A stretch of DNA of 64,000 nt from Acidimicrobium ferrooxidans (GTDB lineage: Bacteria; Actinomycetota; Geothermincolia; Fen-727; Anoxymicrobiaceae), in contig DYIU01000001.1 in the NCBI GenBank assembly GCA_020723485.1, positions 757,850 through 821,849 of the forward strand, in the 5' to 3' direction. The notes under the pieces were generated by a model. That model did not search any database. It had not been told where the DNA came from and saw only the letters and a program-made list of their open reading frames with translations. Numbering within the stretch: position 1 is the first letter of the stretch; the number at the start of each line of letters is the position of its first letter. Made by a program: the position numbers and the translations under genes. This document shows positions 36,380 to 63,529 of this stretch, piece by piece.

Positions 36380-36433
36380 TTGACACCATTGTCACATGCG
36401 GATAGAATCCCTGGCAAGTGAGTGCTCACTCAC
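36380..36433 (+). promoter_or_regulatory. Canonical sigma70-type promoter plus palindromic operator upstream of a TetR gene
   Basis: TTGACA (36380-36385), 17-nt spacer, TAGAAT (36403-36408); palindrome GTGAGTG-CT-CACTCAC (36418-36433) sits at the predicted transcription start. Confidence 0.6.
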
Positions 36434-36458
36434 CTGGGATGTGGAGGCGCAGGTGCCC

Positions 36459-37064: not shown

Positions 37065-37109
37065 GGTCCCACGGCCTGACGGGCGACCGGTCCGCATAGG
37101 GAGGATTGT

Positions 37110-38840: not shown

Positions 38841-38856
38841 AGCTGGAGACACATAG

Positions 38857-40101: not shown

Positions 40102-40161
40102 GCAGGGCAGTTAAATCGGGGTCAGGCCTGGATTCAAGGCCCCTCGAGTCAGGAGTCCGGA

Positions 40162-42238: not shown

Positions 42239-42330
42239 ACCACCGGCGGGCCGTGTCGGACGGTCCGCCGCGATCGACGGAGCGGTACACGCGGGGCCCG
42301 GGTGCGGGGCCCGGCAGCAAGGGAGGGACC

Positions 42331-43833: not shown

Positions 43834-43845
43834 GGAGGGATAAAG

Positions 43846-44976
43846 ATGGGGTCCCGGATAGACGAGGAGCTCCGCATGCTCGAGGAGATGGCGCTCGACT
43901 TCGCGGAGCGTGAGCTGAAGGACAGGCGCGAGGAGTGCGACCACTACCCCTACGCGCCGCTCGAGGAGAACGTGCTCGAGAAGGCCTGCGACGTGGGGTT
44001 TTTCTGCATGACCGTACCCGAGGAGCTCGAGGGCGGGGCCATGGGCGTCGAGGCGCTGTCGCTCGTGCTGAAGGACATATCGCGAACCGACGCGAGCCTC
44101 GCGGGAGTGATCTTCACTACCGCGCTCGCCCAGGAGCTCGTGCTGGCCGCCGGGGCCGGGTCGGTGCTTGCGGGCGCGCCGGGCAACGGCAGCTGGCGCG
44201 AATCTCTCATCGCGTTCCCCTCCTTCGACGACGCCGCCGAGAACCTCGGACTGAGTGCCGAACGGGCCGGCGGGGCGGGTTACACCCTGACGGGGAAGGT
44301 GGAATACGTTGTCCTGGGCGGTCTCGCCTCCAGGGCCCTGCTGCCGGCGGCGGTTCCCGGCGTGGACGGCTACTCCTTCTTCCTGCTCGACCTCGACGCC
44401 GAGGGTGTCAGGAAGAGCGAGCCTGTGCTGAGCCTCGGCCTGCACTCGTGCCCGGCCGTGGACCTGGAGCTCGACGGCGCGAGGGCCGCGCTCGTCGGAG
44501 AGGAGGGGCTGGGCGCCAGCTATTTCACCGACTGCGCCGACAGGCTGAGCATACCCGCCGCGGCCATCTCAACCGGCATCATGAAGGGGTGCCTCGACGA
44601 GGCGCTGGAGTACTCGCGGCAGAGGTTCCAGGGGGGCAGGGAGATAGTCAACTGGTCGGAGCTCAGGCGCATTCTCGCGGACATGGCGACCGTCCAGGCG
44701 ACGGCCGACGCGCTGGTCGCATGCGCCTGCGTGCGGGCCGAGGCAGACGAGCCCGGGTGGCGCCTGCTGGCCAGGGCGACGGCCCTCCAGGTGCAGGCCG
44801 CCGCCTGCGACGTCACGACCGACGGCATACAGGTCCTCGGCGGGAACGGCTACATGGAGGACTACGGGCAGGAGAAGCGGTTCCGCGACGCCAAGCAGGT
44901 CCAGGCGCTGCTCGGCCTGGTGCCGATGAGAAAGCTCGAGTACATAACCCGTGTCATCGAAGGCGAACCCACTTGA
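43846..44976 (+). CDS. Acyl-CoA dehydrogenase-like protein (second paralogue)
   Basis: Follows the first ACAD by 12 bp; N-terminal ACAD-like helical domain; C-terminal region ends with a GGNGY-type motif (LGGNGYMEDYGQEKRFRDAK). Confidence 0.7.
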   Translation: MGSRIDEELRMLEEMALDFAERELKDRREECDHYPYAPLEENVLEKACDVGFFCMTVPEELEGGAMGVEALSLVLKDISRTDASLAGVIFTTALAQELVLAAGAGSVLAGAPGNGSWRESLIAFPSFDDAAENLGLSAERAGGAGYTLTGKVEYVVLGGLASRALLPAAVPGVDGYSFFLLDLDAEGVRKSEPVLSLGLHSCPAVDLELDGARAALVGEEGLGASYFTDCADRLSIPAAAISTGIMKGCLDEALEYSRQRFQGGREIVNWSELRRILADMATVQATADALVACACVRAEADEPGWRLLARATALQVQAAACDVTTDGIQVLGGNGYMEDYGQEKRFRDAKQVQALLGLVPMRKLEYITRVIEGEPT

Positions 44977-44986
44977 ACGCAAAATC

Positions 44987-45008
44987 GGGGTCAGGTCACT
45001 TTGTTGCG
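44987..45008. repeat. Solo 22-bp arm of the GGGGTCAGGTCA element family
   Basis: GGGGTCAGGTCACTTTGTTGCG, 11 bp after the ACAD stop; no partner arm within 100 bp. Confidence 0.7.
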
Positions 45009-45047
45009 TTTCCTGGACAGGATCGAAAGGACGGGCGGGAGGACACA

Positions 45048-45821
45048 ATGGATGACGAGCTGTCGACCGAGCTGAGAGAGATGGACGACGAGCTGGACGA
45101 GATGCTCGAGGGCGAGGACCTCGCGCCGCCGCAGGGGGACGACTGGAACCCGGTGGAGAAGGTGATACTCGAGCGGCGCAGCGTGCGTAAATACAAGGAC
45201 AAACAGGTCCCGGAGAGCGTGGTGCGCCGCATACTGGAAGCCGGCCGGTTCGCGCCGTCGGCCGGCAACTGCCAGCCCTGGAAGTTCATAGTCGTCAGAG
45301 ACCCGGAGTTGATAGACGAGATGGAGCGGGACGCCCGCCGCATGTGCAGGCTGTTCCGGTTCTTCATGGACTGGCGGACGAGTCCCCTCGGTTACTGGAT
45401 CCCCTGGCTGCTCGCGCAGACGTACATAAGGCTGCTGCACCACGAGCTGCACCCGATACCGATGGGCGCCGTGTTCGCCATCTCGGAGGGCAACCTGTCC
45501 CTCTTCCACGGAGCGCCGACCGTCGTCTTCATCCTCGAGGACTTCCGCGGTGTCAGCAAGCCGAAAGTGGACATAGGCTGCTGCGGCCAGAACATGGTCC
45601 TTGCGGCACACAGCATGGGCCTGGGGACCTGCTGGGTGGGCACCATCAAGCTGCTCACCTTCACCCCGAAGTGGAGAAGGCGCCTGGGAGTAAAGTTTCC
45701 TTACAAGTTCTGCGAGGCCGTCACCATAGGGTACCCGGTGGGGCACCCGGACGGGATGATACCCAGGGAGACCGTGGAGACAGACTGGTACGAGGACGGA
45801 CGCAAGCGGACCACCTTCTGA
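45048..45821 (+). CDS. Nitroreductase-family flavoprotein with acidic N-terminal extension
   Basis: ATG at 45048 with GGGAGG RBS; nitroreductase motif RRSVRKYKDKQVPESVVRRILEAGRFAPSAGNCQPWKFIVV; N-terminal ~30 aa very acidic. Confidence 0.75.
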   Translation: MDDELSTELREMDDELDEMLEGEDLAPPQGDDWNPVEKVILERRSVRKYKDKQVPESVVRRILEAGRFAPSAGNCQPWKFIVVRDPELIDEMERDARRMCRLFRFFMDWRTSPLGYWIPWLLAQTYIRLLHHELHPIPMGAVFAISEGNLSLFHGAPTVVFILEDFRGVSKPKVDIGCCGQNMVLAAHSMGLGTCWVGTIKLLTFTPKWRRRLGVKFPYKFCEAVTIGYPVGHPDGMIPRETVETDWYEDGRKRTTF

Positions 45822-45837
45822 GCCTTGGAGGCTGTAA

Positions 45838-46167
45838 ATGGGCGAATTCACCCTCTTCGAGATGCTGCGGATACCCACGTACGACAACGAGGACTACGCG
45901 ACCACCGGGCGGGTCACGATCGACCTCGAGAAGTGCAACGGCTGCGGGTTGTGCGCTAAGGTGTGCCCGGGCAAGGCGCTCTATGTCGCAGGCGAGGGGA
46001 AGGACCGGAAGGCGCACATGCACGCTGATTTCCCGCAGTGCATGTCCTGCAACGACTGCGCCGCGATATGCGAGCGCGACGCCATATTCGTGAGCGTCCC
46101 CTACTTCTTCCCGTTCTTCTTCAAGACGCAGGGCAAGGGCGAGTTCTCGCCCCCCCGCAAGTTCTAA
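45838..46167 (+). CDS. 4Fe-4S dicluster ferredoxin-domain protein
   Basis: Two cysteine clusters: CNGCGLCAKVCP and CMSCNDCAAICE. Confidence 0.7.
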   Translation: MGEFTLFEMLRIPTYDNEDYATTGRVTIDLEKCNGCGLCAKVCPGKALYVAGEGKDRKAHMHADFPQCMSCNDCAAICERDAIFVSVPYFFPFFFKTQGKGEFSPPRKF

Positions 46168-46176
46168 CGAAACACA

Positions 46177-46249
46177 GGGTCAGGTCACTTGTTGCATTTC
46201 TTACTCTGAACTTGGCGGAGGATACAAGTGCAACAAGTGACCTGACCCC
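46177..46249. repeat. Full palindromic element of the GGGGTCAGGTCA family (20/21-bp arms, 32-nt loop)
   Basis: Arms GGGTCAGGTCACTTGTTGCA (46177-46196) and TGCAACAAGTGACCTGACCCC (46229-46249) are reverse complements; lies in the 85-bp gap between the ferredoxin and SDR genes. Confidence 0.8.
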
Positions 46250-46267
46250 GATGTGCAGGGAGGTGCA

Positions 46268-47119
46268 ATGGGTTACAGCGACATCCCGCGCACGGCGGTC
46301 ATAACCGGGGCCGGCTCGGGCCTGGGGAGGGCGATGGCGCTTACCCTGGCCCGGGAGGGCTTCAGGGTCGGAGCGGCCGACATCGACCTCGAGAGCGCCC
46401 GGGAGACCGTGGAGATAGTGCGCCGCGCCGGCTCTACAGGTGAGGCGGTCTCCTGCGACGTACGGTCCCACGACGCAGTCCACGCGCTGGCCGACCATTT
46501 CTTCGACGAATGGGGAGAGGTAGGCATAGTGGCGAACAACGCGGGCGTAGCCGACGTCGGCCACGTCGGTGACATCCCCATGCACTGCTGGCAGCGGACT
46601 ATCGAGACCAGCCTCTGGGGAGTCATCTACGGGTGCCACGCGTTCCTCCCCCGCATGAAGGCCAGCGGCGCCGGCCACATCATCAACACTGCTTCGGCCG
46701 CCGGCTTCATGAACATGCCCGAGATGGCGCCCTACAATATCGTCAAGGCGGGGGTCATCTCGCTGTCCGAGACGCTCAGGGTCGAGCTGACCCCGTTCGG
46801 CGTCGGCGTGACCGTCCTGTGCCCCAGCTTCATCGCGACTAACCTCGACAGGACCGCGACTGTCACCGACCCGTGGCAGGGCGAGCTGGTGACCGCCCTC
46901 TTCCAGAACGCGAAGGTCACCCCCGGCCAGGTCGCGGAGGCCACGCTGAAGGCGGTCAAGCGCAACCGCCTCTACGTGGTCCCCCAGTTCACCCCCAGGT
47001 GGGGCTGGAGGTTGAAGAGGTTGAATCCCGGAGCTTTCACCGCCGGCTTCGCCGCGGCCTACAACGCCCCCTTCGGCAAGCGCGTTGCCATGTTCTTCGC
47101 CCGCCGGGGGATGATATAG
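46268..47119 (+). CDS. Short-chain dehydrogenase/reductase (SDR)
   Basis: ATG at 46268; cofactor motif AVITGAGSGLGRAMA; NNAG motif (VANNAGVADVG). Confidence 0.8.
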   Translation: MGYSDIPRTAVITGAGSGLGRAMALTLAREGFRVGAADIDLESARETVEIVRRAGSTGEAVSCDVRSHDAVHALADHFFDEWGEVGIVANNAGVADVGHVGDIPMHCWQRTIETSLWGVIYGCHAFLPRMKASGAGHIINTASAAGFMNMPEMAPYNIVKAGVISLSETLRVELTPFGVGVTVLCPSFIATNLDRTATVTDPWQGELVTALFQNAKVTPGQVAEATLKAVKRNRLYVVPQFTPRWGWRLKRLNPGAFTAGFAAAYNAPFGKRVAMFFARRGMI

Positions 47120-47242
47120 GCCGGGACCTATTGCATTCCCCGGGCGAACTGGGATAAAAAAGACCCGTCCCTTCACAAAGGGATTTCACCCTGACTGGAA
47201 GAAGTTAGGGGTGTCTGACGAGGTCTGCTTGAGGGTGACGCG

Positions 47243-47461
47243 ATGGTGGCGGAAAAGCGCGCTACACGCATGCTCATACTCATCCCGGTTTTTGCGGTGC
47301 TGCTCGCTCTTCTCTTCTCTATGACAGGTCTCAACATGGGCATGACGGTCGCCGAGAGGCCGACGGCTCCCAGGGCCCTGATCCACGCCGCCGTCCTTTT
47401 CTCTGACGCCCTCTACATTACCGCCACCGGCGCCCAGGCGCTCGTGGCCCGTCGACAGTAA
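47243..47461 (+). CDS. Small hypothetical membrane protein (72 aa)
   Basis: ATG preceded by GAGGGTGA; one predicted TM helix (MLILIPVFAVLLALLFSMTGL); no homology recognised. Confidence 0.3.
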   Translation: MVAEKRATRMLILIPVFAVLLALLFSMTGLNMGMTVAERPTAPRALIHAAVLFSDALYITATGAQALVARRQ

Positions 47462-47568
47462 TCGCGGCGGCCCCCCTCAAAACGTGCCGGAACCCATTAC
47501 CTCGCACCGTGTGCGCCCGCGCCGCGACGGCTATTATATAGGCGACCGCAAAGAACAAGGGGGCTGCC

Positions 47569-48348
47569 ATGGACGAGGTGCTGGTCGAGAAGAGCGGGAA
47601 GGTCTGCACGGTCATCATCAACCGGCCCGAGGTGCGCAACTGCGTGAACCGGCCGACCGCCGAGCGGCTCTTCGAGGCGTTCAAGGAGTTCGACTCCGAC
47701 GATTCACTGTGCGCCGCGGTGCTCTGGGGCCAGGGCGGGTACTTCTGTGCCGGGGCTGACCTCAAGGCGCTGGCGAGCGGTGACCTCAACCTGATTAATC
47801 CCCTGAACGAGGACATGAGCCTCTGCGCCCCGATGGGCCCGACGCGGCTGCTCCTCTCAAAGCCGGTCATAGCGGCCGTCGCCGGCTACGCCGTAGCCGG
47901 TGGGATCGAGCTCGCCTGCTGGTGCGACCTCCGAATCGTTGAGGAGGACGCGGTGTTCGGGGTCTTCGACCGCAGGTTCGGCGTCCCCCTCATCGACGGG
48001 GGCACCCAGCGGCTCCCGCGGCTGGTCGGCCTGAGCCGCGCGCTCGACATGATACTGACAGGCCGGGCGGTGGGAGCCCGTGAGGCGCTCGAATTCGGGC
48101 TTGCGAACAGGGTGGTCGGCAAAGGGGAAGCCAGGCTGGAGGCGGAGAAGCTGGCCGCCGAGCTCGCGGAGTTTCCACAGTCGGGGCTGCGGGGCGACCG
48201 GAAAGCGGCCTATCTCGGGTTCGGGCTCGAGCTCGACAGGGCGATGGAACTCGAGTACAGGGTCGGCATCGAGGCTATCACCAGCGGCGAGGCGGTCACG
48301 GGAGCCACCGAGTTCACCGGCGGCAAGGGAAAGCACGGGCAGTTCTGA
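47569..48348 (+). CDS. Enoyl-CoA hydratase/isomerase (crotonase family)
   Basis: Crotonase oxyanion-hole region (FCAGADLKAL) and conserved catalytic stretch (VAGYAVAGGIELACWCDLRI). Confidence 0.85.
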   Translation: MDEVLVEKSGKVCTVIINRPEVRNCVNRPTAERLFEAFKEFDSDDSLCAAVLWGQGGYFCAGADLKALASGDLNLINPLNEDMSLCAPMGPTRLLLSKPVIAAVAGYAVAGGIELACWCDLRIVEEDAVFGVFDRRFGVPLIDGGTQRLPRLVGLSRALDMILTGRAVGAREALEFGLANRVVGKGEARLEAEKLAAELAEFPQSGLRGDRKAAYLGFGLELDRAMELEYRVGIEAITSGEAVTGATEFTGGKGKHGQF

Positions 48349-48457: not shown

Positions 48458-51211
48458 CTAGTCGGTTCCGCTCACCCCGAGTGACGCGTGCGCAGCCTGC
48501 CGGTACGTCCCGTCCGCGCCGTGCCAGTACATCGCTCTCTCGGCTATTACCGGCGCATCGGAGGTTACCAGGGTGGAGACGCTCCACTCACCGGGCAGCG
48601 TGTCGGCCACGCTGAGGGTCTGCCTGCCTCCCGGCTCGAGGGGCGGCAGAGGCGGGCCGGGCACACTCCCCTCGAGCGTCATGTACGTTATCAGCGGGTT
48701 GGCAACTTCGGTCCCGGCGTTGAAGATTGTGATCCAGGTCTCGAAAGAGCCGAAGGTGCCCGAGCCCGTTGAACCTTCGGCGAAGCACCACTCCACCGCA
48801 CCGGCCGTGGCGCCGATCGACCCGTGCGCCGCCTGCCGGTAGGTCCCGTCAGAACTGTGCCAGTACACTGAGCGCTCCGCGACTATCGGTACGTCTGATG
48901 CCACATGCGTGGAGAAGCTCCACTCACCGGCAATGCCGACGTTGTACGTCTGCCTCGTACCCGGCTCCAGCGGGGGAACTATGTGCCGGGTCGCGGATTC
49001 AATGTTGACGTTTGCCGTCTCGGTCCCCGGGTTCTGAACGGTGATCCAGGTCTCGAACGAGCCGTGGCCGTCCGAGCCCGCGGAGCCCTCCGCGAAGTAC
49101 CAATCCGTCGCCCCGGCTGTGACCCCGATGGAATCGTGCGCCGCCTGCCGGTAAGCCCCGCCGGAACCGTGCCAGTAAACCGCCCTCTCCGCGACGATCG
49201 GTACGGTGGAGCTGACCCGGGTTGAGACGCTCCATTCGCCGGGAACCGTGTCCCCAACGCTGAACGTCTGCCTGGTCCCGGGCTCCAGAGGCGGCACGGC
49301 CGGTCCCGCTACCTCGCCCTCCGGAGTCATGTAAGTCATCACCGGGAGGGCGGTTACGGCTCCCGGATTCTGCAGTGTGATCCAGGTCTCGAACGAGCCA
49401 CGCGAGTCAGAGCCGGTGGAGCCTTCAGCGAAGTACCAGTCGGACGCACCCGCGTTGACCCCGATGGAATCGTGAGCCGCCTCGCGGTAGCCGCCGTCAG
49501 CGCCGTGCCAGTACTGCGCCCTTTCGGCAGCTATCGGCACGTCCGAGGTGACATGGGTGGACACGCTCCACTCATCCGGGACCGTGTCACCCACCGAGTA
49601 CGTTTGCCTGGTCCCCGGCTCCAGGGGCGGGACGGGCGGTCCGGCCACCTCGCCGCCCGGCGTCATGTAGGTGATCACCGCCTGCGCCGACTGGTTCCCC
49701 GGGTTCTGAAGGACAATCCATGTCTCGAAAGACCCACGGGCGTCAGCGCCGGTGGAGCCCTCGGCGAAGTACCAGTTCTGTGCCGTATCCGGGAGCTCGG
49801 GGTTGTTTACGACCGTCTGTGTATCGCTCGCGGTCTTGTAGTAACCGGTCTGCTCGTCCTTTATCTCGGCGATGTTTATCAATAGGACGTCCCCGAAACG
49901 CGGGAACTGGTCCTGCGCCTTGAGGGTCAGCCTGTAGCTGAACTCGCTGGTGGCCGAACCGCCCTCGAGCCGCCCGACCTGCCATCGGACCTTCCCGCCG
50001 TCGATTACGCTCCCCCCGTCCGTGATGCCGGTCACGCTCTCCACGAGGCTCTCGTCGTAGTCGTCCATGACCGCTACCTGGTTCGCGGCGGTCTGGCCGC
50101 GGTTCTCGAAGCTCACGGTGTACTCCAGGGTGTCCCCGGGCGAGATGAGCCCGTCGCCGTCGCGGTCGACGGCCAGCCGCCCGCTTTTCTCGATATTGAA
50201 GTCGACCATCGCGGCGAACCAGAACCAGTCGAAGTAGAAATCGGCGTAATACCCGTCGTCGTCCGTGTTGACGAGGTCGACCGAGTACCTGGCTGTGTCC
50301 GTGGCGACGTGCCCGGCCAGAGGGTAGGTCCTGTCGTCCCAGCTGTTCCCGTCCGTATCCTCGCAGACGTCGTCCTGGTGGAAGTCCGGAGCGTTGCGGT
50401 TGCCCCACTCGTCATAGGAGCGGAAGTCGTAGGACATTGTGTCCGGGGCGTGGCCTTCGGATGTCAGGATGCCCTTGTAGGCGGAGGGGAGTGTCGGCCT
50501 GGTGGTGAAGTCCATGGCGGAACAACTCGCCTGGTGATGCGAGTCCATGATGTTACAGCCGTCGGCGATGCACACCTCGCCCATGGTGATCGACTGGTGA
50601 GTGAAGACTATTACGAGGCTTGCCCCCCACCACGCCTTCAGGGGAAGGAGGCTGAGCGGCCCGGTCTCGACGTGGTACATCCGGTTGGGCTCGTCCCCGA
50701 TGAGGTCGGTGACCTCCGCGCGGTACAGGCGGCGGTGGTTGACGCCGTTCATCATCTCGTAGCCGACCTGGTCGACGTCGCCCCCCTCGTCCCTCCAGCC
50801 GGTCAGGGGCGTGCCCTCGAACGTTATCTCGCCGGACCCGGCCGGCGCCTGGTCCCTTCCCGGTATGGAACGCCCGTCGGTCCCGAAGTTCCCTCCCCAG
50901 TAGAGGAAGGCTCTCTTTATCTCAGCACCTTCCGGCACATGGTTTATCGTGGCGTTACCGGGGGACATGTCGATGTACATCTGGCTCCTGTCCGGGGCCT
51001 CGTGCATCCCGATACCCTCGGAAGTTATCCCCACGTTACCGGCAGCCCTGAGGAAGACGGTGGTGGAGCCGTCCTTACCGACCGACCAGTCAATGGTCTC
51101 GTCGTATGACAGGGCCGACTTGTCCGCCGCAGCCGCCGGCCCGTACGCGCCGATGATGAGACAGGCCAGTATGAAAACCGCCGGCAGGACGATAAGGCGT
51201 CTTCTCAACAT
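48458..51211 (-). CDS. Secreted repeat protein (917 aa), paralogue of the giant protein: unique N-terminal half plus 4 type-A repeat modules
   Basis: ATG at 51211 with AAAGGA RBS; signal peptide (MLRRRLIVLPAVFILACLIIGAYGPAAAA); C-terminal half holds four ~110-aa modules beginning [WC][YF]FAEGS.G....GSFETWI.[VLI].N.G and ending AER[AS].YWH. Confidence 0.8.
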   Translation of the reverse strand: MLRRRLIVLPAVFILACLIIGAYGPAAAADKSALSYDETIDWSVGKDGSTTVFLRAAGNVGITSEGIGMHEAPDRSQMYIDMSPGNATINHVPEGAEIKRAFLYWGGNFGTDGRSIPGRDQAPAGSGEITFEGTPLTGWRDEGGDVDQVGYEMMNGVNHRRLYRAEVTDLIGDEPNRMYHVETGPLSLLPLKAWWGASLVIVFTHQSITMGEVCIADGCNIMDSHHQASCSAMDFTTRPTLPSAYKGILTSEGHAPDTMSYDFRSYDEWGNRNAPDFHQDDVCEDTDGNSWDDRTYPLAGHVATDTARYSVDLVNTDDDGYYADFYFDWFWFAAMVDFNIEKSGRLAVDRDGDGLISPGDTLEYTVSFENRGQTAANQVAVMDDYDESLVESVTGITDGGSVIDGGKVRWQVGRLEGGSATSEFSYRLTLKAQDQFPRFGDVLLINIAEIKDEQTGYYKTASDTQTVVNNPELPDTAQNWYFAEGSTGADARGSFETWIVLQNPGNQSAQAVITYMTPGGEVAGPPVPPLEPGTRQTYSVGDTVPDEWSVSTHVTSDVPIAAERAQYWHGADGGYREAAHDSIGVNAGASDWYFAEGSTGSDSRGSFETWITLQNPGAVTALPVMTYMTPEGEVAGPAVPPLEPGTRQTFSVGDTVPGEWSVSTRVSSTVPIVAERAVYWHGSGGAYRQAAHDSIGVTAGATDWYFAEGSAGSDGHGSFETWITVQNPGTETANVNIESATRHIVPPLEPGTRQTYNVGIAGEWSFSTHVASDVPIVAERSVYWHSSDGTYRQAAHGSIGATAGAVEWCFAEGSTGSGTFGSFETWITIFNAGTEVANPLITYMTLEGSVPGPPLPPLEPGGRQTLSVADTLPGEWSVSTLVTSDAPVIAERAMYWHGADGTYRQAAHASLGVSGTD

Positions 51212-53094: not shown

Positions 53095-53344
53095 TTAAAG
53101 CCCCCTTCCGCCGGGGCGACCTCGCCCTCCGGCACCAGCTGAGCAGGCAAACACCTGCCACAATGATATCGTGCATCTCCAAAGATAACTTTACACGCGG
53201 GCCGCCGCGTTCCTCCACGGGGCCTGGAGCGCGTTCTTACCGAAGGTAAAATCCTGCGTGCGACAGCGGCGGATATGCACGGGGCGAGCCCACTCTTATA
53301 TAATTTGACACTGGCCTGATTGTATTTAGTGGAGGGAGTTGTCA

Positions 53345-54391
53345 ATGAAGACCAAGATCACCGAACTCCTGGGCATCGAACACCCGATAATCCTCTCGGG
53401 TATGAGCTGGATAAGCACGCCGGAGATGGTGGCCGCCGTGAGCAACGCGGGGGGCCTGGGCATACTGGCGACGGGCGTCCTGGACGCGGACGAGACGAGG
53501 AAGGCCATCAAGCGCATAAGGGAGCTGACCGACAAGCCTTTCGGGGCGAACGCTTCCCTGCTCTTCCCGGGAGCCGCCGCGAACGCCGCTGTGTGCCTCG
53601 AGGAGAAGATACCGGTTGTCAACTTCTCGCTGGGAAAGGGCGACTGGATAGTGCAGATGGCTAACGAGTACGGCGGCAAGGTCCTGGCGACCGTCACCAA
53701 CGCCCGCCACGCGAAACGCGCCCAGGACTACGGCTGCCACGGGGTCATCGCGACCGGGAACGAGGCGGCCGCGCACGGCGAGCCACCGACGACCTTCTGC
53801 CTTGTGCCGAGCATGGCCGATGTCATCGACATCCCCATTATTGCGGCGGGCGGAGTGGGCGACGGGCGCGGGCTGGCGGCGGCCATGGCACTGGGCGCCG
53901 AGGGGGTCGCCATGGGGACCCGGCTGATGACGACAGTCGAAAGCCCCCTCCACGAGAATTACAAGAAGCTCTCGATCGAGAAGGACGTCTACGACACGCT
54001 CTACAGCAAGCGCTTCGATGGCCTGTGGTGCCGCGTCCTGGACACTCCGGGCGCCAGGAAGTCCATCAAGGCGGGCATCTTCCCGTGGGGTTACCTCAAG
54101 GCGATACCCAACTCGAAGTTCCTCGCCGACATGCTGAACCTCCCATACTGGAAGATGTTCATCGGGGTGCTGGCCTCCGGGTGGAGCAACGCCCGGCAGC
54201 TCGCCTACATGGCGAACGCTTTCAACAAGATAAAGGAAGCGACCGAGGAAGGCGACGTTGTAAAGGGCGTTCTGCCGGTCGGCCAGGTGACCGGTCTCCT
54301 GCACGATATCCCGACCGTCGCAGAGGTGATCGAGCGCACCGTCCGGGAAGCCGAGGAGATAATAAAGGCCCGGCTGGCCCAGATGGCGTAG
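53345..54391 (+). CDS. Nitronate monooxygenase / FMN-dependent enoyl-reductase-like (NMO family) protein
   Basis: ATG at 53345 with GGAGGGAG RBS; NMO sequence (ITELLGIEHPIILSGMSWISTPEMVAAVSNAGGLGILA...; IPIIAAGGVGDGRGLAAAMALGAEGVAMGTR). Confidence 0.8.
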   Translation: MKTKITELLGIEHPIILSGMSWISTPEMVAAVSNAGGLGILATGVLDADETRKAIKRIRELTDKPFGANASLLFPGAAANAAVCLEEKIPVVNFSLGKGDWIVQMANEYGGKVLATVTNARHAKRAQDYGCHGVIATGNEAAAHGEPPTTFCLVPSMADVIDIPIIAAGGVGDGRGLAAAMALGAEGVAMGTRLMTTVESPLHENYKKLSIEKDVYDTLYSKRFDGLWCRVLDTPGARKSIKAGIFPWGYLKAIPNSKFLADMLNLPYWKMFIGVLASGWSNARQLAYMANAFNKIKEATEEGDVVKGVLPVGQVTGLLHDIPTVAEVIERTVREAEEIIKARLAQMA

Positions 54392-54395
54392 GGAA

Positions 54396-55526
54396 TTGGC
54401 CTCAGAAACGCGCTTCGCCCCGCCGGAACGGGAGGAAAGACAGCAGGCGCTGGCCGAGTCGCGCAGGCTCGGAAAGGACAGCGACCTGCAGCTGCTGCTG
54501 AGAGCAGTGCCTGACTGCGCGGCCATCCTGAACGACAAGAGGCAGGTGCTGCTGGCGAACGGCGAGCTCCTGGGGCTGCTCGGGGCGGAGGACCTCGAGA
54601 ACGCGGTAGGGAGCAGGCCCGGGGAGGCGGTGGGCTGCATCCACGCATGGGATTCCCCCGCAGGATGCGGCACCTCGGAAAGCTGCAGATACTGCGGCGC
54701 GGCCCAGGCGCTGGTGGCGGCAGTCGAGACCGGTAGGAAAACGACCCACGAGTGTCGTATCACAGCGAGCTGCGAGACCGAGACGGAGTGGCTCGACCTC
54801 CTGGTGACCGCGCTTCCCATCGAACACGAGGGAAGCACGCTGGTCCTTCTCACTCTCTCGGACATAAGCGACCTCAAGCGCAGGAGAGCCCTCGAGAGGA
54901 TATTCTTCCACGACGTGCTGAACTCGGCCTCTGCGCTCTACGGGTTACTGCAGATGGCGCACGACTTCGAGGAGGGTGACGTCCGCGAAGAGCTCGGGCG
55001 GCTCGTCGACCTCGGCGGGCGGCTGATAGACGAGATAACCTCGCAGAGGGACCTGCTCGCGGCCGAGAGCGGCGAGCTCAACGTGCAGCCCAGGCCGGTG
55101 GATATCCAGGAGCTGCTCCTGGAGGCGGCCTCGCAGTTCAGGAGCATGACACTGGACGAGGGCAAGGAGCTTGTGGTCGAGGAAGGGGCGGCCCTGGAGA
55201 TAATCACCGACCAGCGGCTGCTGTTCCGCATCATCACGAACATGCTCAAGAACGCGCTCGAGGCATCGGGCGAGGGCTCGACCGTGACCGCGGGTGCCGA
55301 GGCCGTGGGCGAAGGTGCCCGCGTATGGGTGCGGAACCCCGGATGGATGCCCAGGGAGGTCCAGCTGCAGGTGTTCCAGCGCTCTTTCTCCACGAAGGGT
55401 GCCGGCCGGGGCATCGGCACTTACAGCATGAAGCTCATCGGCGAGCGCTATCTCAAGGGTGAGGTCTCGTTCGAATCCGACGAAGTGAGAGGTACGGAGT
55501 TCAGCATCACGCTGCCCCCGGCGTAG
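54396..55526 (+). CDS. Cytoplasmic sensor histidine kinase (no adjacent response regulator)
   Basis: TTG start; no TM helix; N-terminal sensor-like region with a four-Cys stretch (CIHAWDSPAGCGTSESCRYC); H-box-like IFFHDVLNSASAL; ATPase N-box (ITNMLKNALEAS) and G-boxes (GAGRGIGTYSMK). Confidence 0.7.
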   Translation: MASETRFAPPEREERQQALAESRRLGKDSDLQLLLRAVPDCAAILNDKRQVLLANGELLGLLGAEDLENAVGSRPGEAVGCIHAWDSPAGCGTSESCRYCGAAQALVAAVETGRKTTHECRITASCETETEWLDLLVTALPIEHEGSTLVLLTLSDISDLKRRRALERIFFHDVLNSASALYGLLQMAHDFEEGDVREELGRLVDLGGRLIDEITSQRDLLAAESGELNVQPRPVDIQELLLEAASQFRSMTLDEGKELVVEEGAALEIITDQRLLFRIITNMLKNALEASGEGSTVTAGAEAVGEGARVWVRNPGWMPREVQLQVFQRSFSTKGAGRGIGTYSMKLIGERYLKGEVSFESDEVRGTEFSITLPPA

Positions 55527-55590: not shown

Positions 55591-55998
55591 ATGAAGACGC
55601 GTGAGGAGCGTGCCATGCCGGATGACAAAGCCTTGCTCGAGACCCTGGTAGCGCGCGAGAAGGTTCGCCGCGAGGCCTGGCTCAACCATGACGCGGAGGC
55701 GCTCCGCGGCCTGCTGACGGACGACTACGTCGAGGTCAACCTGCTGGGTCGCCTGTCGCGCGAACAGGTGCTCGAGGAGATATTCCCCTACCTCGAGATG
55801 AAAGAGTACGAGATGAGCGACTTCCGCCTGGCCCGCGCGGGAACCGGGGCGGCTGCCATCACCTACCACTGCCGGGAGAGGGTGAGCTTCAAGGGCGAGC
55901 CCGACATCACCGGCGACTTCCACGTCTCCGCCGTATACACGCAGGAAGACAGCGAGTGGCGCCTGCTGCTCTGGTCGATCACCCCCTACGAGAAGTAA
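55591..55998 (+). CDS. NTF2-like/SnoaL-like fold protein (DUF4440-like)
   Basis: 135 aa; composition and motif spacing (W..HD.EAL..LL.DDY...N..G......V.........) typical of small NTF2-like proteins; not verified. Confidence 0.55.
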   Translation: MKTREERAMPDDKALLETLVAREKVRREAWLNHDAEALRGLLTDDYVEVNLLGRLSREQVLEEIFPYLEMKEYEMSDFRLARAGTGAAAITYHCRERVSFKGEPDITGDFHVSAVYTQEDSEWRLLLWSITPYEK

Positions 55999-56163
55999 GA
56001 GCAAGGGGTCAGACCACTAACGTCACGTCCCCAGCAGCAGTACTAGCCGCTGACGCCCGTTTTCGGAGTAATGCCGTTGAATTCGCCGGTGCGCAATATG
56101 ACGAAACCGGCCTGACCCCATCTGGTATACTGACGCGAGTGTCACCAAACACGGGAGGGCCCA

Positions 56164-58032
56164 ATGAGAGGCGACTCGATCACGGGCTGCGAGCTCATCT
56201 CGCGGTGCCTCGAGGCGGAGGGCATCCGCTACGTCTTCACGGCACATACCGAGCGCCTGCACCCCCTGCTCGACGCTCTCGAGCAAAAGGGAGACATCAG
56301 GGTGGTGGCGGCCAGAAGCGAGACCGCGGCCACGGTGATGGCCGACGGGTACGTCCGGCGCTCGAGGCGCGTCGCGGCGGTCCTGACCGACGACAACGGC
56401 GCCGCGTTGTCGCAGGTGAGCGGGGTGACCAACGCGTGGGCGGACAAGATCCCCCTGCTGTCGCTGTCACTCAGCGCGGACAGTGAGCCAGACTTCAGCA
56501 AAGGGTATGACCGTTACCGCTTCGACCAGGGTGAGGTCTTCCAGCCGGTCACCCAGTACAGGAGTAAGCTCGAGTCGCTTTCCGAGGCGCAGTCGGTCTT
56601 TGCCGAGGCCGTTGCGCGTTCCACCAGCAACAAGATGGGGCCGTGCCACGTAGACATCCCGGCGCGCCTGCTTGGCGAGACTATCGACGGCAGGTCGGCG
56701 CCTGACCCGGGCGGTTTCGAGGAGCGGAGGATAGAGTCCGTCAGGATGTGCGGTGACGGGGACGCCGTGGAGCGCGCCGCGGCCCTGATCGCCGGTGCCG
56801 AAAGGCCCCTGCTGTTCCTCGGCGGCGGTGTCCATGCCTCGGGCGCCCATGCCGAGGCCGCCGGGCTTGCCAGGGGGCTTGGCATTCCCGTGGCGACCTC
56901 GATGGCCGGCGTCGGGGCGTTCCCGCTGGACGACCCGCTCTGCCTGGGGGGCCCGAGCTATACCTCGGGTGAGGTCTTCCATGCGGCGATCAAGGAAGCG
57001 GACACGGTCGTAGCCGTGGGTGTCAGTTTCGGCGGCCTCGAGGGCTTCGGACTTCCACCGCTGTGGTCGGACGCGATACGGTTCATACACATCGACGTCG
57101 CCCCCCTGCAGATGGGCTTGAACGTACACCCGGAGGTAGCGGTGCTGGGTGACGCGCGGACCGTCCTGACCCAGCTGGCGGAAACGCTCGCGGGTCGTGG
57201 CTTCACGGGCCGGCCGGAGTGGGGCCGCTGGAGCGCCAGACTGGCGGAGCTCAAATCCGGGCGGGCCAGGCGGCTGGAGCGCAACGCCATGAGGCGTTGG
57301 CCCTCCATGCACCAGGGAAGGGCAGCGATGGAGCTCGGCAGGCTCGTGGACCGGGACGACCTGCTGATAGTCATCGACGGCGGCAACACTCCGCTCTACG
57401 CCACCATGTACGCCCCCACCATAAAGCCCGGACAGGCGTTCTTCCCGTTCGGGATGGCCGCCCTCGGCGGGGGAATCCCATACGCGATAGGGGTGCAGCT
57501 CGCGTCGCCCGACAGGCGGGTGCTGCTGGTCACCGGTGACGGTTCTTTCATGTACAACGTCCAGGAGCTGGAGACGATCAAGAGGCTCGGGCTCCCGATA
57601 ATGATCGCCGTGAACAACGACTCCGCCTGGAACATGATAAAGGCCATGCAGGACTCCCTGTTCGCGCGCAACTTCGTGGGCACGTGCCTGCCGGATGTCG
57701 ATTACTCGAAGATAGCCTCCGGGTTCGGCCTCCACGCTGAGAGGGTCTCGCGGCCCGAGGAGATAGCCCCTGCTTACGAGCGGGCGGTGGCTTCGGGCGG
57801 CCCGGCGCTCATCGACGCGGTCACTGACTCCACGAACATCCCGGACAGCCTGCTCAGCTTCTTCCTTGTCGAGTTCGAGGGAGCGTTCGCGGGCATCAGC
57901 CCCACCAAGCTCGCCAGGAGCCTCTGGATGATGAGAGACGTGGGAATCCACAGGATGATGTACATGTCGACTTACATCAGGAAAGCGCTCTTGAAGGTGT
58001 TCATCCCTTCGGGGTGGGGGAGGTCGTCATGA
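56164..58032 (+). CDS. Thiamine-pyrophosphate-dependent enzyme (acetolactate-synthase/2-hydroxyacyl-CoA-lyase superfamily)
   Basis: TPP N-terminal domain with catalytic Glu context (ARSETAATVMADGY); central domain; intact TPP-binding motif GDGSFMYN...NNDSAWN. Confidence 0.8.
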   Translation: MRGDSITGCELISRCLEAEGIRYVFTAHTERLHPLLDALEQKGDIRVVAARSETAATVMADGYVRRSRRVAAVLTDDNGAALSQVSGVTNAWADKIPLLSLSLSADSEPDFSKGYDRYRFDQGEVFQPVTQYRSKLESLSEAQSVFAEAVARSTSNKMGPCHVDIPARLLGETIDGRSAPDPGGFEERRIESVRMCGDGDAVERAAALIAGAERPLLFLGGGVHASGAHAEAAGLARGLGIPVATSMAGVGAFPLDDPLCLGGPSYTSGEVFHAAIKEADTVVAVGVSFGGLEGFGLPPLWSDAIRFIHIDVAPLQMGLNVHPEVAVLGDARTVLTQLAETLAGRGFTGRPEWGRWSARLAELKSGRARRLERNAMRRWPSMHQGRAAMELGRLVDRDDLLIVIDGGNTPLYATMYAPTIKPGQAFFPFGMAALGGGIPYAIGVQLASPDRRVLLVTGDGSFMYNVQELETIKRLGLPIMIAVNNDSAWNMIKAMQDSLFARNFVGTCLPDVDYSKIASGFGLHAERVSRPEEIAPAYERAVASGGPALIDAVTDSTNIPDSLLSFFLVEFEGAFAGISPTKLARSLWMMRDVGIHRMMYMSTYIRKALLKVFIPSGWGRSS

Positions 58033-59570
58033 GGTACCCGAGCGGAGGCGAACTGCTGGTCGAGTGCCTGGTCCGGCAGGGGGTATCCCATGTCTTCTCC
58101 ATCATCGGGGGCCAGATGGGCACCATCTACGACGCTATCGGCAGGTCGGGGGACATAGACGTTGTGACGCCCCGGAGCGAGACGGCGGCCGCGCTCATGG
58201 CGTGCGGCTACACCGCCGCGAGCGGCCGCCCGTGCGTGTCGATGGCGACGGTCGGCGCCGGGGTGGTCTACGAGGTCGCGGGCCTCTCCAAGGCGTGGTT
58301 CGATTACCTGCCGGTGATATCGATCGCGCCGCAGGTCCAGAGCTACCGGGTCAAGCCTCACCAGGAGAGCCTGCAGGCGTGCGAGCAGGACGAGCTCTTC
58401 TACCCGATAACGAAATGGAACTCCATTGTCTTCCACTGGGCGAGGATACCCCAGATGGTGGACAGGGCATTCAGGGAGGCGCTCACTGGAGTGCCCGGGC
58501 CGGTTCACCTCGACATCCCGGTGGACGTCCTGTTCAAGCGAAGCCCGCTCACGGCCGCGCGGGAGCAGAGGTTGATGGTGGAACCGGGCCGGTCGCGCTA
58601 CGAGGGCTCCATCATGGGAGAAGCCGACGCGGCCGGGAGGGTTTTCCGGGCACTGAGCGCGGCGAGAAGGCCGCTTGCCGTCATCGGACAGGGATTCGGC
58701 CGGCCCGGCAGGTTCCCTGCGGCCGCCGCGTCATTGGAGGAGATGGGCGTTCCTGTCGTCACTACCGTGCACAGTGCCGGGGTGATGCCGGATGGGAGCG
58801 CCTGTTACGCGGGCGACCTCGAGTCCTGCGAGGGGCTCGAAGTGGTCGGACAGACCGATCTCGTCCTGCTGGTGGGCATAGACCACGGCTCCCGGGGGTT
58901 CATTGAGCGAATAGGCGCCGCGGTTCCCGTCGTGCAGGTCGAGACGGACCCCACGGCGTTTCTTTCCGGGCGTGATGTGCGCGTCGCCGTCTACGCGGAC
59001 CCCGAGAACGCGCTCGCCGGGATGAAGGAGGCCACGGTGAAGGCCGACGTCAGCTCCTGGCGCGAAGAGTTCGTTGCGGCCGCAAGGGACGCAGCCGACT
59101 CGGCTGCGGCGGAACACCAGGTCGTGGGCACGATTGTCGACATGCTCCGTGAGGCCGGCACCGGGAGGAACGTCATAGTCGCCGATGGAGAGGTCCCTGC
59201 GCTTGCGGCACGGCGGGTACTTACGCGGGTAGAGCACAAGGCCGTCTTCATCATGGACGAGCGTGAGATCCGCGGAGCCGGCCTCCCGTTCGCAATCGGC
59301 GCGCACCTGTCCGAACCGGGCGACAATGTCATCCTCGTGTGCGACAAGAACTCGCTCTTCTACCACGTAAGGGAGCTTCAGCCGGCGGTCTGTGGCGGAA
59401 TGGACATAACTGTGATCTGCGTCGATGACGTCGATGCGGAGACCAACGTCGCGGACACGGGCAGCGTCCTCTCCGGGCTCGGATGCGACGTCAGAAGATG
59501 CGCTGGGGGCCGGAGGGGGGACCTCGCTTCCTGCCTGGCCGGCGTACCCTCCGCGGTCATCCTCCAGTGA
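58029..59570 (+). CDS. TPP-enzyme homologue with degenerate TPP-binding motif
   Basis: ATG at 58029 with GGGGGAGG RBS, overlapping the upstream stop; TPP N-terminal-like domain present (PRSETAAALMACGY) but the position of the GDG...NN motif reads CDKNSLFYHV...VCVDDVD. Confidence 0.7.
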   Translation: MRYPSGGELLVECLVRQGVSHVFSIIGGQMGTIYDAIGRSGDIDVVTPRSETAAALMACGYTAASGRPCVSMATVGAGVVYEVAGLSKAWFDYLPVISIAPQVQSYRVKPHQESLQACEQDELFYPITKWNSIVFHWARIPQMVDRAFREALTGVPGPVHLDIPVDVLFKRSPLTAAREQRLMVEPGRSRYEGSIMGEADAAGRVFRALSAARRPLAVIGQGFGRPGRFPAAAASLEEMGVPVVTTVHSAGVMPDGSACYAGDLESCEGLEVVGQTDLVLLVGIDHGSRGFIERIGAAVPVVQVETDPTAFLSGRDVRVAVYADPENALAGMKEATVKADVSSWREEFVAAARDAADSAAAEHQVVGTIVDMLREAGTGRNVIVADGEVPALAARRVLTRVEHKAVFIMDEREIRGAGLPFAIGAHLSEPGDNVILVCDKNSLFYHVRELQPAVCGGMDITVICVDDVDAETNVADTGSVLSGLGCDVRRCAGGRRGDLASCLAGVPSAVILQ

Positions 59571-61961: not shown

Positions 61962-63359
61962 CTAGTCGTCCCAGGCGCCGATGGTCTCCTCCCCCGAGGT
62001 GCGGGCGGAAAGAGACCCCGCCTCGGTCCATATGTAAGTGGCGCGCTCGCAGATTATGTTCTGTCCGGGGGTGAGGCTCCTCACCCTGATCGCATACCTG
62101 CCCGGCGTGGTCATGGTGTCCGCCAGGTTGTAGGTGGCTCGCGTGTTGGCAAGGACAGTCCTGTTGATGGTCGCGTCCGGAAGCACGCCCTCACCGTAGT
62201 ACTTCATCTCGATGTTGACGTCCACCGGATTTGGATTCTGCACGCAGGTCCAGGTCTCGTACAGCAGTCCGCAGTTGCCTCCGGGGAGGTACCAGTAGGC
62301 GTGAGACCCGTCAACCCCTATGGAGTCGTGGCCCACCTCGCGCCAGATGCTTCCGGAGCCCCAGTACATCGGTCGCTCGGCGAGGAGCGGGAGGGTGCCC
62401 GACACCTTGATGGACAGGTCGGTGTTGGGCGCCTGCTCGTTGACCTTGATGGTCTCGCGTGTCTGGGGGGCCATCGGGAATGGAGCCATTACGATCTGGC
62501 CGCTCGGCTTCATGTAGGTGATGGTCACCTGGTTCACAGCCGCGTTGGGATTCTGGATGCACAGGAATGTCGTGAACCCCCAGGCCGTCGTTCCCTCGGC
62601 GAGGAAGAAGTCGTTGGCCGGGGTAGTGGCGCCGACCGACTCGTGACCCATCCTGCGGGAGTCCCTGTACATGGACCTTTCGCAGATTATCGGCTGGTTT
62701 CCCAGCACCTGGATGGAGGCGTCCGCCGAGCCTATGTCGTTCGTCATGTTGTAGGACGCGCGAGAATTAGAGGGGACCGTCTTGTTGACGGCGAACGGCC
62801 CGAAACCCTCGATCATGTAAGTGATGATGATGTCTGTAGCTGCCACGTTCGGGTTCTGCACCGTTAGCCAGGTCTCGAAGCCCCATGCGCTGGAGCCCTC
62901 CGGGAGATACCAGATGTTGTTCGGGGCGGTGACGCCTACAGATGAGTGGGTCTCCAGGTTCTGCTCCACTTCGGAGCCCGGCCCACCCATCCAGAACATA
63001 GTCCGATCGACGGCAATAGTCCTGGTCGGGTCGAGGCACTCCACCAGGGTGCTGAAATCCCGCTGGCCAACTGCAGTCAGGGGATTTACGGTCACTCGGC
63101 TCTCGGAAGGCATCGTGAACGGGGGCTGGACGAGCGGGCCCAGGTCCGCGGTCATGTAGGTTATGCGGATCTGGACGTCAACGGTGTTCGGGTTCTCTAT
63201 GTTGATGTAGGTGCCGAAGCCCCAGGCGGTAGTGCCTTCTGCGAGGTACCAGGTCGGGAGCGGGCCCGCCACGGCCGCCCCTCCGCCGAGGAGCATTAGC
63301 GATGCCGCGCCGGCGCACATCATAAGGGCTACCAGAATCGAGATCATCTTCCGTGCCAT
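61962..63359 (-). CDS. Secreted repeat protein (~465 aa) made of signal peptide plus 4 type-B repeat modules
   Basis: ATG at 63359 (MARKMISILVALMMCAGAASLMLLGGGAAVAG); the upstream part of the ORF (to 63470) is translated palindromic element; four ~110-aa modules beginning WYL[AP]EG[TS].AWGF.T[YW][IL]...NPN. Confidence 0.75.
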   Translation of the reverse strand: MARKMISILVALMMCAGAASLMLLGGGAAVAGPLPTWYLAEGTTAWGFGTYINIENPNTVDVQIRITYMTADLGPLVQPPFTMPSESRVTVNPLTAVGQRDFSTLVECLDPTRTIAVDRTMFWMGGPGSEVEQNLETHSSVGVTAPNNIWYLPEGSSAWGFETWLTVQNPNVAATDIIITYMIEGFGPFAVNKTVPSNSRASYNMTNDIGSADASIQVLGNQPIICERSMYRDSRRMGHESVGATTPANDFFLAEGTTAWGFTTFLCIQNPNAAVNQVTITYMKPSGQIVMAPFPMAPQTRETIKVNEQAPNTDLSIKVSGTLPLLAERPMYWGSGSIWREVGHDSIGVDGSHAYWYLPGGNCGLLYETWTCVQNPNPVDVNIEMKYYGEGVLPDATINRTVLANTRATYNLADTMTTPGRYAIRVRSLTPGQNIICERATYIWTEAGSLSARTSGEETIGAWDD

Positions 63360-63440
63360 CACACCCACCTCCGTAAGGTTGCCTGCTTCAAGAGTACTCC
63401 TGCGGGCAATGACGGTCGAGAGCGCAGTTCCCTTACATGC

Positions 63441-63529
63441 GCACAATGGGGTCAGGTCATTTTGTTGCATTCAAGGAGTCTGGGATGAGTATGGTCAAAA
63501 TGCAACAAAATGACCTGACCCCATTGTGC
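63441..63529. repeat. Full palindromic element of the GGGGTCAGGTCA family with extended arms (~28 bp, 31-nt loop)
   Basis: Core arms GGGGTCAGGTCATTTTGTTGCA (63448-63469) and TGCAACAAAATGACCTGACCCC (63501-63522); the palindrome extends outward to GCACAATGGGG...CCCCATTGTGC; lies between two minus-strand genes. Confidence 0.8.

Follow-up and report, generated by a model that had tools for sequence, protein, structure and literature searches.

Why would a bacterium keep two adjacent, full-length paralogues of a thiamine diphosphate (ThDP) enzyme when only one of them retains the motif that binds the cofactor? The question is raised by two genes, here called gene 1 and gene 2, in a 64,000-nucleotide stretch of DNA from Acidimicrobium ferrooxidans (GTDB lineage Bacteria; Actinomycetota; Geothermincolia; Fen-727; Anoxymicrobiaceae; assembly GCA_020723485.1, contig DYIU01000001.1, positions 757,850 to 821,849 of the forward strand). 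This whole stretch is the window to which all coordinates below refer. A first-pass annotation, made from the sequence alone, had described the two genes as translationally coupled, both with a thiamine pyrophosphate (TPP)-enzyme N-terminal domain, and had suggested either a heteromeric enzyme with one catalytic and one non-catalytic subunit or a second paralogue repurposed for binding. Our analysis leads to a different division of labor. With a probability of about 0.6, the comparisons argue that the two gene products are subunits of an obligate heteromeric ThDP enzyme with one composite active site and one pseudo-site.

In the textbook picture, enzymes of this superfamily assemble as homodimers or homotetramers, each dimer having two symmetric active sites, and how these sites communicate has been the subject of much mechanistic work. 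Each ThDP site lies at the dimer interface, between the pyrophosphate-binding (PP) domain of one chain and the pyrimidine-binding (Pyr) domain of the other. The PP domain binds the diphosphate-Mg2+ end of the cofactor, and a Glu of the partner chain's Pyr domain binds and activates the aminopyrimidine. Which of these contacts each paralogue has kept is therefore the first thing to establish.

Cofactor contacts in the two paralogues

Both proteins showed the Pyr-middle-PP architecture of the decarboxylase/POX-like three-domain ThDP superfamily by Pfam, AlphaFold2 (AF2) models, and Foldseek searches, and they are 26% identical to each other. Pfam detected TPP_enzyme_N in gene 1 (78 bits) and in gene 2 (84 bits), which bears out the N-terminal domain that had been assigned to both. 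TPP_enzyme_M and TPP_enzyme_C followed in gene 1 with 115.5 and 125.6 bits. The TPP_enzyme_M match of gene 2 scored 58.9 bits, and its TPP_enzyme_C match was partial and marginal (23.6 bits against a cut-off of 21.9 bits, profile positions 31-82 of 151). The AF2 models, which were of monomers only, had a pLDDT of 87.9 and a pTM of 0.91 for gene 1 and a pLDDT of 87.7 and a pTM of 0.91 for gene 2. In Foldseek, the gene 1 model reached TM 0.75-0.88 to acetohydroxyacid synthase (AHAS), HKA synthase, benzaldehyde lyase (BAL), and 2-hydroxyacyl-CoA lyase (HACL), and the gene 2 model, in which the six-stranded C-terminal alpha/beta domain is complete, matched whole chains of BAL, AHAS, and HACL at a TM of ∼0.8. 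Gene 2 thus has the complete three-domain fold of a ThDP enzyme and does not fall into any known regulatory-subunit family; Pfam, the AF2 model, and Foldseek returned TPP_enzyme domains only for it, with no ACT match.

The cofactor-binding motif, which the first-pass annotation had placed in gene 1 only, was located in both pairwise BLASTP and phmmer alignments and against solved AHAS structures. In these, VTGDGSFMYNV...IAVNND of gene 1 pairs with LVCDKNSLFYHV...ICVDDV of gene 2, and the verified codons confirmed that gene 2 reads CDK...DD at the equivalent positions. This loss is a property of the gene 2 family, which comprises ∼80 sequence clusters of ∼510-540 aa at 41-85% identity from mostly anaerobic lineages. 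In 35/35 aligned members, GDG is replaced by C/S/T/A, then D/E/N, then K/Q/R/D/T/H/L; the NN position is not conserved, and the G-x-M-G segment ahead of the canonical motif is absent. The GDG...NN motif is missing from the sister clade of gene 2 as well. To allow for a functional motif that has merely shifted, the proteins were searched with the loose pattern G[DE][GSA]-x20-35-N[NDCSTQ], which was present in 68/68 gene 1 relatives, 23/23 members of the gene 1 sister clade, and 14/17 complete relatives, that is, single proteins with both halves of the site. It was found in 0/16 members of the gene 2 sister clade and in 7/79 gene 2 relatives, where the hits were scattered over non-homologous positions, so no shifted motif takes the place of the lost one. 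The motif loss in gene 2, seen in all 35 aligned family members, is far beyond chance. By alignment and model together, the PP domain of gene 2 is degenerate and compact, with its fold retained and all cofactor-binding motifs gone, and a PP domain modeled as folded is what would be expected of the structural half of a pseudo-symmetric dimer.

The Pyr domain of gene 2, in contrast, is highly conserved. Across the family, E51, FSIIGGQMG, TVGAGVVYE, and HQESLQA show little or no variation; these segments hold the Glu, the GG loop, and the active-site Gln of a canonical Pyr domain. Gene 1 is its mirror image. Its GDG (codons 57535-57543) and N485-D486 (57616-57621) were verified at the codon level, and it keeps the Gly-Met of the position that in ThDP enzymes holds the cofactor in its V conformation. 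Besides these PP contacts and the lid motif PDSL.SF.LVEFEG, many middle-domain residues are invariant in the gene 1 family, as are P560, D561, S565, F566, E570, G573, and Y604 in the C-terminal region, which the AF2 model folds into helices at 563-574, 580-593, and 595-609. The family alignments show its Pyr domain to be without the G-x-P-G-G loop, the GPGxxN turn, and an equivalent of the Gln in the AHAS "FQE"; the consensus at the loop is fTv...rl in the gene 1 family versus FGipGgQ in complete relatives. The Pyr Glu is present in both proteins (E51 in gene 2, E53 in gene 1). Three members of the gene 1 sister clade (P0209, P0214, and P0222) have Asp in its place (PLGDIAG, PVSDIAC) next to a perfect GDG...ND, a substitution that is consistent with the Pyr domain of a gene 1-type subunit not activating the cofactor.

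The same reciprocity appeared when whole clades were compared. The Pyr contacts (GG loop, GxGxxN/E, Gln) are kept in the gene 2 clade, its sister clade, and the complete singleton relatives and lost in the gene 1 clades; the PP contacts (G-M, GDG, N-D) show the reverse pattern. Identity of the Pyr domain within the family and to the nearest complete relatives was 49% and 27% for gene 1 and 67% and 43% for gene 2, and for the middle and PP domains the corresponding values were 57-67% and 35-40% for gene 1 and 40-45% and 21-26% for gene 2. Invariant columns in the Pyr domain numbered 18/114 in gene 1 and 49/63 in gene 2. As read from these alignments, conservation in gene 2 is highest in the Pyr domain, and each of the two full-length paralogues has given up the half of the cofactor site that the other retains.

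These data bear on the alternative closest to the first-pass suggestion, namely, that gene 1 is an ordinary catalytic homodimer with two ThDP sites and its own Glu53, and gene 2 a pseudoenzyme that stabilizes or regulates it in the manner of the AHAS small subunit. Such an arrangement would agree with the intact PP domain of gene 1, with the invariance of Glu53 in its close family, and with the fact that canonical cofactor binding by gene 2 is impossible, its motifs being lost and none shifted; AHAS itself is an established precedent for coupled catalytic and accessory genes. It would leave unexplained, however, why no region of either protein is better conserved than the catalytic-type Pyr domain of gene 2 with its Glu, GG loop, and Gln, why the GG loop, GPGxxN, and Gln have been lost from gene 1, and why Glu has changed to Asp in some members of the gene 1 sister clade. 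We consider this explanation unlikely.

Coupling and distribution of the pair

The open reading frames (ORFs) are adjacent, as the first pass had it, and lie on the same strand. The start of gene 2 is most likely ATG 58029 and not GTG 58014, because GGGGAGG lies at 58017-58023, the ATG overlaps the TGA stop of gene 1 as ATGA, and the database copy P0001, identical to the gene 2 protein, is 513 aa long. The translational coupling that had been proposed stands with either start.

A synteny scan with one genome per species gave 23 genuine loci. They came from Actinomycetota (among them Geothermincolia at 88% identity), Desulfatibacillum (among them the cultured D. alkenivorans DSM 16219), Smithella/Syntrophaceae, Brocadia/Anammoxibacter, Bacillota, one metagenome-assembled genome (MAG) of Sandaracinaceae, and others, and the pair spans at least five phyla, mostly of anaerobes. 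In 22 of the 23 loci, gene 2 is immediately preceded, on the same strand, by a full-length gene 1 orthologue; these orthologues are 49-71% identical with the C-terminal extension included, and the junctions range from a 4-nt overlap (-4) to about +10 nt. The pair was also intact in all 7 further metagenome or MAG contexts inspected and in 3/3 sister-clade loci, and the sizes of the two families match each other. Three candidates, picked because the length of their contigs pointed to a solitary gene 1, each proved to have the partner gene 2 downstream, so that no solitary gene 1 was found among the 23 genome loci, the other contexts inspected, and these 3 candidate cases. In one of the three, a long-read metagenome contig (L040:6862-8333), the gene 2 orthologue was called as two ORFs of 215 and 275 aa, a split that is probably a frameshift error and not real. 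A gene 1 product working as a self-sufficient homodimer leaves the lack of solitary gene 1 copies, too, unexplained.

Because strict, conserved tandem synteny is combined with coupling, these comparisons strongly support a heteromeric enzyme, and to this extent the first-pass suggestion holds. Its division into a catalytic and a non-catalytic subunit is probably wrong, because gene 1 lacks the canonical Pyr contacts and gene 2 is most conserved in just this domain. The same data dispose of the idea that the genes have no functional tie, gene 2 being a decaying tandem duplicate or the two being independent neighboring enzymes. Tandem paralogues are common, and gene 2 is without the cofactor motif; yet its ORF is intact and conserved at 41-85% identity over ∼80 clusters, several phyla, and a sister clade, it always stands beside gene 1 with coupled junctions, and it has 49 invariant Pyr columns. 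On these conservation data, we regard the absence of a tie as effectively refuted and give it almost no weight.

Domain-wise neighbor-joining (NJ) trees grouped gene 1 with its sister clade and gene 2 with its sister clade, each with 100% bootstrap support, and the pairing is therefore older than the divergence of these clades. Among complete enzymes, those closest to both halves are undivided, homomeric relatives (P0104-P0120, 564-594 aa, mostly from Actinomycetota MAGs), in which the Pyr domain is 43% identical to gene 2 and the PP domain 40% identical to gene 1. They share with the pair the signatures KESxQ and ELET...ND.AW..IKA.Q and differ from it in having both halves intact in one gene; at the one locus inspected, the closest complete enzyme was a singleton. 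Duplication of an ancestor of this kind was considered as the origin of the pair and is not demonstrated, the undivided relatives not being monophyletic in the domain-wise NJ trees.

A predicted composite site and its counterparts

Since ThDP sites lie between the PP and Pyr domains of different chains, the reciprocal degeneration points to one shared composite site. In the arrangement that we propose, gene 1 would supply the PP half, with GDG/NND and G-M anchoring ThDP-Mg2+, and gene 2 would supply the Pyr half, with Glu51 activating the cofactor; gene 1 would also enclose the functional site with its middle domain and C-terminal lid, parts that in this superfamily normally surround the substrate, and the PP domain of gene 2 together with the Pyr domain of gene 1 would form a dead pseudo-site. 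Coupling through the ATGA overlap would yield equimolar synthesis of the subunits. The comparisons show which motifs are present or absent, the reciprocal conservation of the domains, a retained fold, and strict adjacency across phyla; from these we infer that the two chains associate physically, that each heterodimer carries one cofactor, and which Glu is catalytic, and an alpha2beta2 dimer of heterodimers seems more likely than a simple heterodimer. Gene 2 would accordingly not be the passive or binding partner that the first pass had envisaged, the evidence favoring two half-competent subunits that share one site. A broader proposal, in which a single-site obligate heterodimer is encoded by a mobile two-gene module widespread in anaerobes (Desulfatibacillum, Smithella/Syntrophaceae, anammox Brocadiaceae, Geothermincolia, and Bacillota) and serves as a C-C lyase/ligase in ketone or acyl-CoA metabolism, strikes us as an even bet.

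The second pocket could instead have been put to another use, with a heterodimer in which the PP domain of gene 2 and the Pyr domain of gene 1 hold an allosteric nucleotide, the CoA moiety of the substrate, or ThDP in an Mg-independent manner. The Asp of CDK and the Lys next to it in most gene 2 members, E53, R117, and D121 in gene 1, and the high confidence with which the gene 2 PP fold is modeled would suit such a site. In that domain, however, the residues at the NN and G-M positions and the C-terminal stretch are variable or missing, the PP and middle domains of gene 2 evolve fast, and nothing speaks positively for any ligand; we rate a repurposed pocket as more doubtful still than a regulatory gene 2.

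Several observations weigh against the composite site with a dead counterpart. Glu53 is invariant in the close gene 1 family although a vestigial Pyr domain would not need it, so that a gene 1 homodimer might still be partly active. The Asp of CDK in gene 2 and R117/D121 in the gene 1 Pyr domain are fairly well conserved, and the pseudo-site may thus have a function. The deeper branching of the pair relative to its relatives was not separated by NJ bootstraps, and the functional context of the genes is weak and variable. Finally, in one MAG (L013, 2849-4813), the last 83 codons of gene 1 run in frame into the gene 2 orthologue, giving a 654-aa ORF. The part of gene 1 that remains there is the C-terminal helical extension, and upstream of the fused ORF lies an unrelated minus-strand gene. 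The fusion has arisen either by rearrangement or as an artefact of assembly, or else it hints at an interaction between the tail of gene 1 and gene 2.

The closest functional analogues of the proposed composite site are split ThDP enzymes. In ComDE (sulfopyruvate decarboxylase) and in the E1 alpha/beta component of 2-oxoacid dehydrogenases, the Pyr and PP halves reside on separate polypeptides. Split-gene transketolase, e.g., that of Carboxydothermus, is another such enzyme (PMC7661550). As in our pair, the genes are adjacent, and the two halves of the site come from two polypeptides; for our pair, a site composed of PP from gene 1 and Pyr from gene 2 is predicted from the reciprocal motif and domain conservation. 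In the split enzymes, however, each chain has only its own domain, whereas here both chains carry all three, and the split enzymes are alpha2beta2 assemblies with two equivalent sites, whereas one site and one pseudo-site per heterodimer are predicted here. The pair would thus divide its labor by complementary degeneration and not by gene fission.

AHAS of the IlvB/IlvN type belongs to the same fold superfamily, gave the best sequence and structure matches, and is likewise encoded by a coupled two-gene operon with an accessory subunit. That subunit (IlvN/IlvH), however, is a small ACT-domain protein, whereas gene 2 encodes a 513-aa ThDP-fold paralogue, and the AHAS segment RFDDR pairs with SFGGLEG in gene 1. 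The best NCBIfam model, the AHAS large-subunit equivalog (TIGR00118 and related), scored 266.4 bits for gene 1 and 169.7 bits for gene 2 against a cut-off of 538.35 bits. The identity of the pair as AHAS with a regulatory subunit was rejected on these missed equivalog cut-offs and the missing ACT domain. BAL/formolase, 2-hydroxyacyl-CoA lyase/synthase, and oxalyl-CoA decarboxylase are among the top structural matches of both models, and actinobacterial HACL gave the longest alignments with gene 1, part of its C-terminal region included; these enzymes differ from the pair in that all are homo-oligomers. Both gene 1 and these enzymes appear to be FAD-independent. The NCBIfam HACL model NF058623 scored 190 bits against a cut-off of 600 bits.

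No NCBIfam model reached its curated cut-off for either protein, the PDB held nothing closer than generic AHAS (E values of 1e-34 and 5e-51), and searches of the literature for heteromeric or pseudoenzyme ThDP precedents and for omics data on the Desulfatibacillum genes found nothing relevant. On the strength of these searches, the full-length paired arrangement appears to be undescribed, as had been surmised. In databases, both genes are labeled "acetolactate synthase large subunit" or "thiamine pyrophosphate-binding protein", annotations that are generic or misleading for either.

If the composite site is real, it would add a new quaternary logic to the superfamily, an asymmetry created by complementary degeneration of full-length paralogues, and it would be a clean case of subfunctionalization into an obligate heteromer. 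It would also offer a natural single-site variant for the long-debated questions of two-site communication and half-of-the-sites reactivity. In practical terms, gene 1 expressed alone may give an inactive enzyme, and the seemingly "catalytic" gene would not by itself reconstitute activity. The family marks an unassigned reaction in alkane-degrading sulfate reducers, syntrophs, and anammox bacteria, and cultured hosts exist, e.g., D. alkenivorans AK-01 (protein ACL04192.1).

Locus layout, neighborhood, and possible reaction

The features of the two genes are collected in Table 1. We found no terminator, promoter-like site, or Rfam element between or before the two genes, and no sigma-70-like promoter for the pair. 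A terminator-like match inside gene 1 was the sole one and was discarded, as it did not rise above the level given by shuffles. In the whole 64-kb window, no Rfam family reached its gathering score, and no tRNA or rRNA family was matched. G+C content is 60-67% across the window, and the pair forms no obvious compositional island.

Table 1. Positions of the two genes and of the segments discussed in the text
Feature	Position	Strand	Basis or remark
Gene 1 Shine-Dalgarno GGGAGGG	56153..56159	+	Direct sequence read; ATG at 56164, 5 nt on
Gene 1, 622 aa, ThDP enzyme paralogue	56164..58032	+	Pfam N/M/C, AF2 model, Foldseek, family alignments
Gene 1 Pyr loop FTAHTERL, in place of G-x-P-G-G	56236..56259	+	Pairs with giPGGsil of E. 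coli AHAS I
Gene 1 Glu53 (Pyr Glu)	56320..56322	+	Invariant in close family; Asp in some sister-clade members
Gene 1 Gly430-Met431	57451..57456	+	Invariant in 35 sequences; missing from gene 2
Gene 1 ThDP/Mg2+ motif, GDG 458-460 to N484-N485-D486	57535..57621	+	G458, D459, G460, N485, D486 invariant
Gene 1 C-terminal lid motif PDSLLSF.LVEFEG and ∼40-aa extension with two further helices	57829..58029	+	Conserved in family
Gene 2 Shine-Dalgarno GGGGAGG	58017..58023	+	Located within the 3' end of gene 1
Gene 2, 513 aa, ThDP enzyme paralogue	58029..59570	+	Pfam, AF2 model, Foldseek, family alignment A1
Gene 2 canonical Pyr loop IIGGQMG	58101..58121	+	FSIIGGQMG near-invariant; pairs with ypGGa of AHAS
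Gene 2 Glu51, candidate cofactor-activating Glu	58179..58181	+	Invariant 35/35; pairs with prhEqg Glu of A. thaliana AHAS
Gene 2 HQESLQA, keeps active-site Gln (AHAS "FQE")	58359..58379	+	Q112, E113, L115, Q116 invariant; pairs with dafQEt
Gene 2 CDK, replaces GDG	59340..59348	+	Alignments, codon coordinates verified
Gene 2 DD, replaces NN; position unconserved in family	59424..59429	+	Alignments, codon coordinates verified

As to the reaction, we suggest with low confidence that the enzyme would cleave or form a C-C bond adjacent to a carbonyl group as part of anaerobic ketone, acyloin, or 2-hydroxyacyl-CoA metabolism, because the fold relatives are AHAS, BAL, and HACL and because certain neighbors loosely recur. 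These are short-chain dehydrogenase/reductase (SDR), crotonase, alpha/beta-hydrolase, and acyl-CoA dehydrogenase genes and, once, an acetoacetate-decarboxylase (ADC)-family gene. In a census of the 136 ORFs within 5 kb of the pair at the 23 loci, the non-regulatory families found most often were SDR (7) and crotonase (6), followed by Glyoxalase_4 (4), alpha/beta-hydrolase (3), and CMD (3), and no neighbor family was universal among the loci. The most operon-like context (L026) consists of an AraC gene, the pair, and genes for an SDR, a crotonase, a second SDR, a glyoxalase-fold protein, a CMD protein, an esterase, and an acyl-CoA dehydrogenase (ACAD); NCBIfam named it only through generic SDR, crotonase, esterase, ACAD, and AraC matches, all below cut-off. 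At L038, an ECH_2 gene lies directly downstream of the pair.

The ADC-family gene (PF06314) was seen at L041 (158-8411), where it lies with a C_GCAxxG_C_C gene (PF09719) and an SDR gene, all co-directional, directly upstream of a relative of the pair; an 884-aa protein without a Pfam match belongs to the same upstream set. In the anaerobic sulfate reducers Desulfococcus biacutus and Desulfosarcina cetonica, an acetone-induced COG0028 ThDP enzyme has been implicated in ketone activation, and in D. biacutus C_GCAxxG_C_C (PF09719) and SDR proteins are acetone-induced as well (PMC4103992, PMC7888143). The D. biacutus enzyme (DebiaDRAFT_04566) is reported to be one protein of 685 aa, encoded next to a B12 mutase, whose activity could never be reconstituted in the case of the ThDP enzyme itself; the neighbors of the D. 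biacutus/D. cetonica enzyme are absent from the proteome tables (PMC4103992, PMC7888143). As described, it differs from the pair in being one 685-aa protein and not the product of two genes, and no B12 mutase was seen beside any pair inspected. We therefore treat the link to acetone activation as a lead only.

Within the window, a co-directional set of genes at 36396-48348, 8-19 kb upstream of the pair, encodes a TetR regulator, an AMP-binding acyl-CoA ligase, a thiolase-like protein (Thiolase_C_1), an alpha/beta-hydrolase, an SDR, a 506-aa ORF without a Pfam match, an acyl-CoA dehydrogenase, another SDR, and an enoyl-CoA hydratase. The same families occur beside the pair elsewhere, and this acyl-CoA set might belong to the same pathway. 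Just upstream of the pair lie an NMO/IMPDH-like flavoenzyme gene (53339-54391), a histidine-kinase-like gene that begins 5 nt after it (54396-55526; HATPase_c, no HisKA match), and a DUF4440/SnoaL-like gene (55591-55998). An NMO-like gene was also found near the sister-clade pair L037. Two minus-strand genes, at 48458-51211 (917 aa) and 61962-63470 (502 aa), encode large, predicted secreted repeat proteins built on an ∼100-aa module with the signature W[YF]FAEGSTG...FETWI.[LV]QNP...Y.T....V; the 917-aa protein gave weak CLIPPER/CARDB matches only in Pfam. DUF5719-containing proteins were observed near the pair or its relatives at two further loci (L030 and L034).

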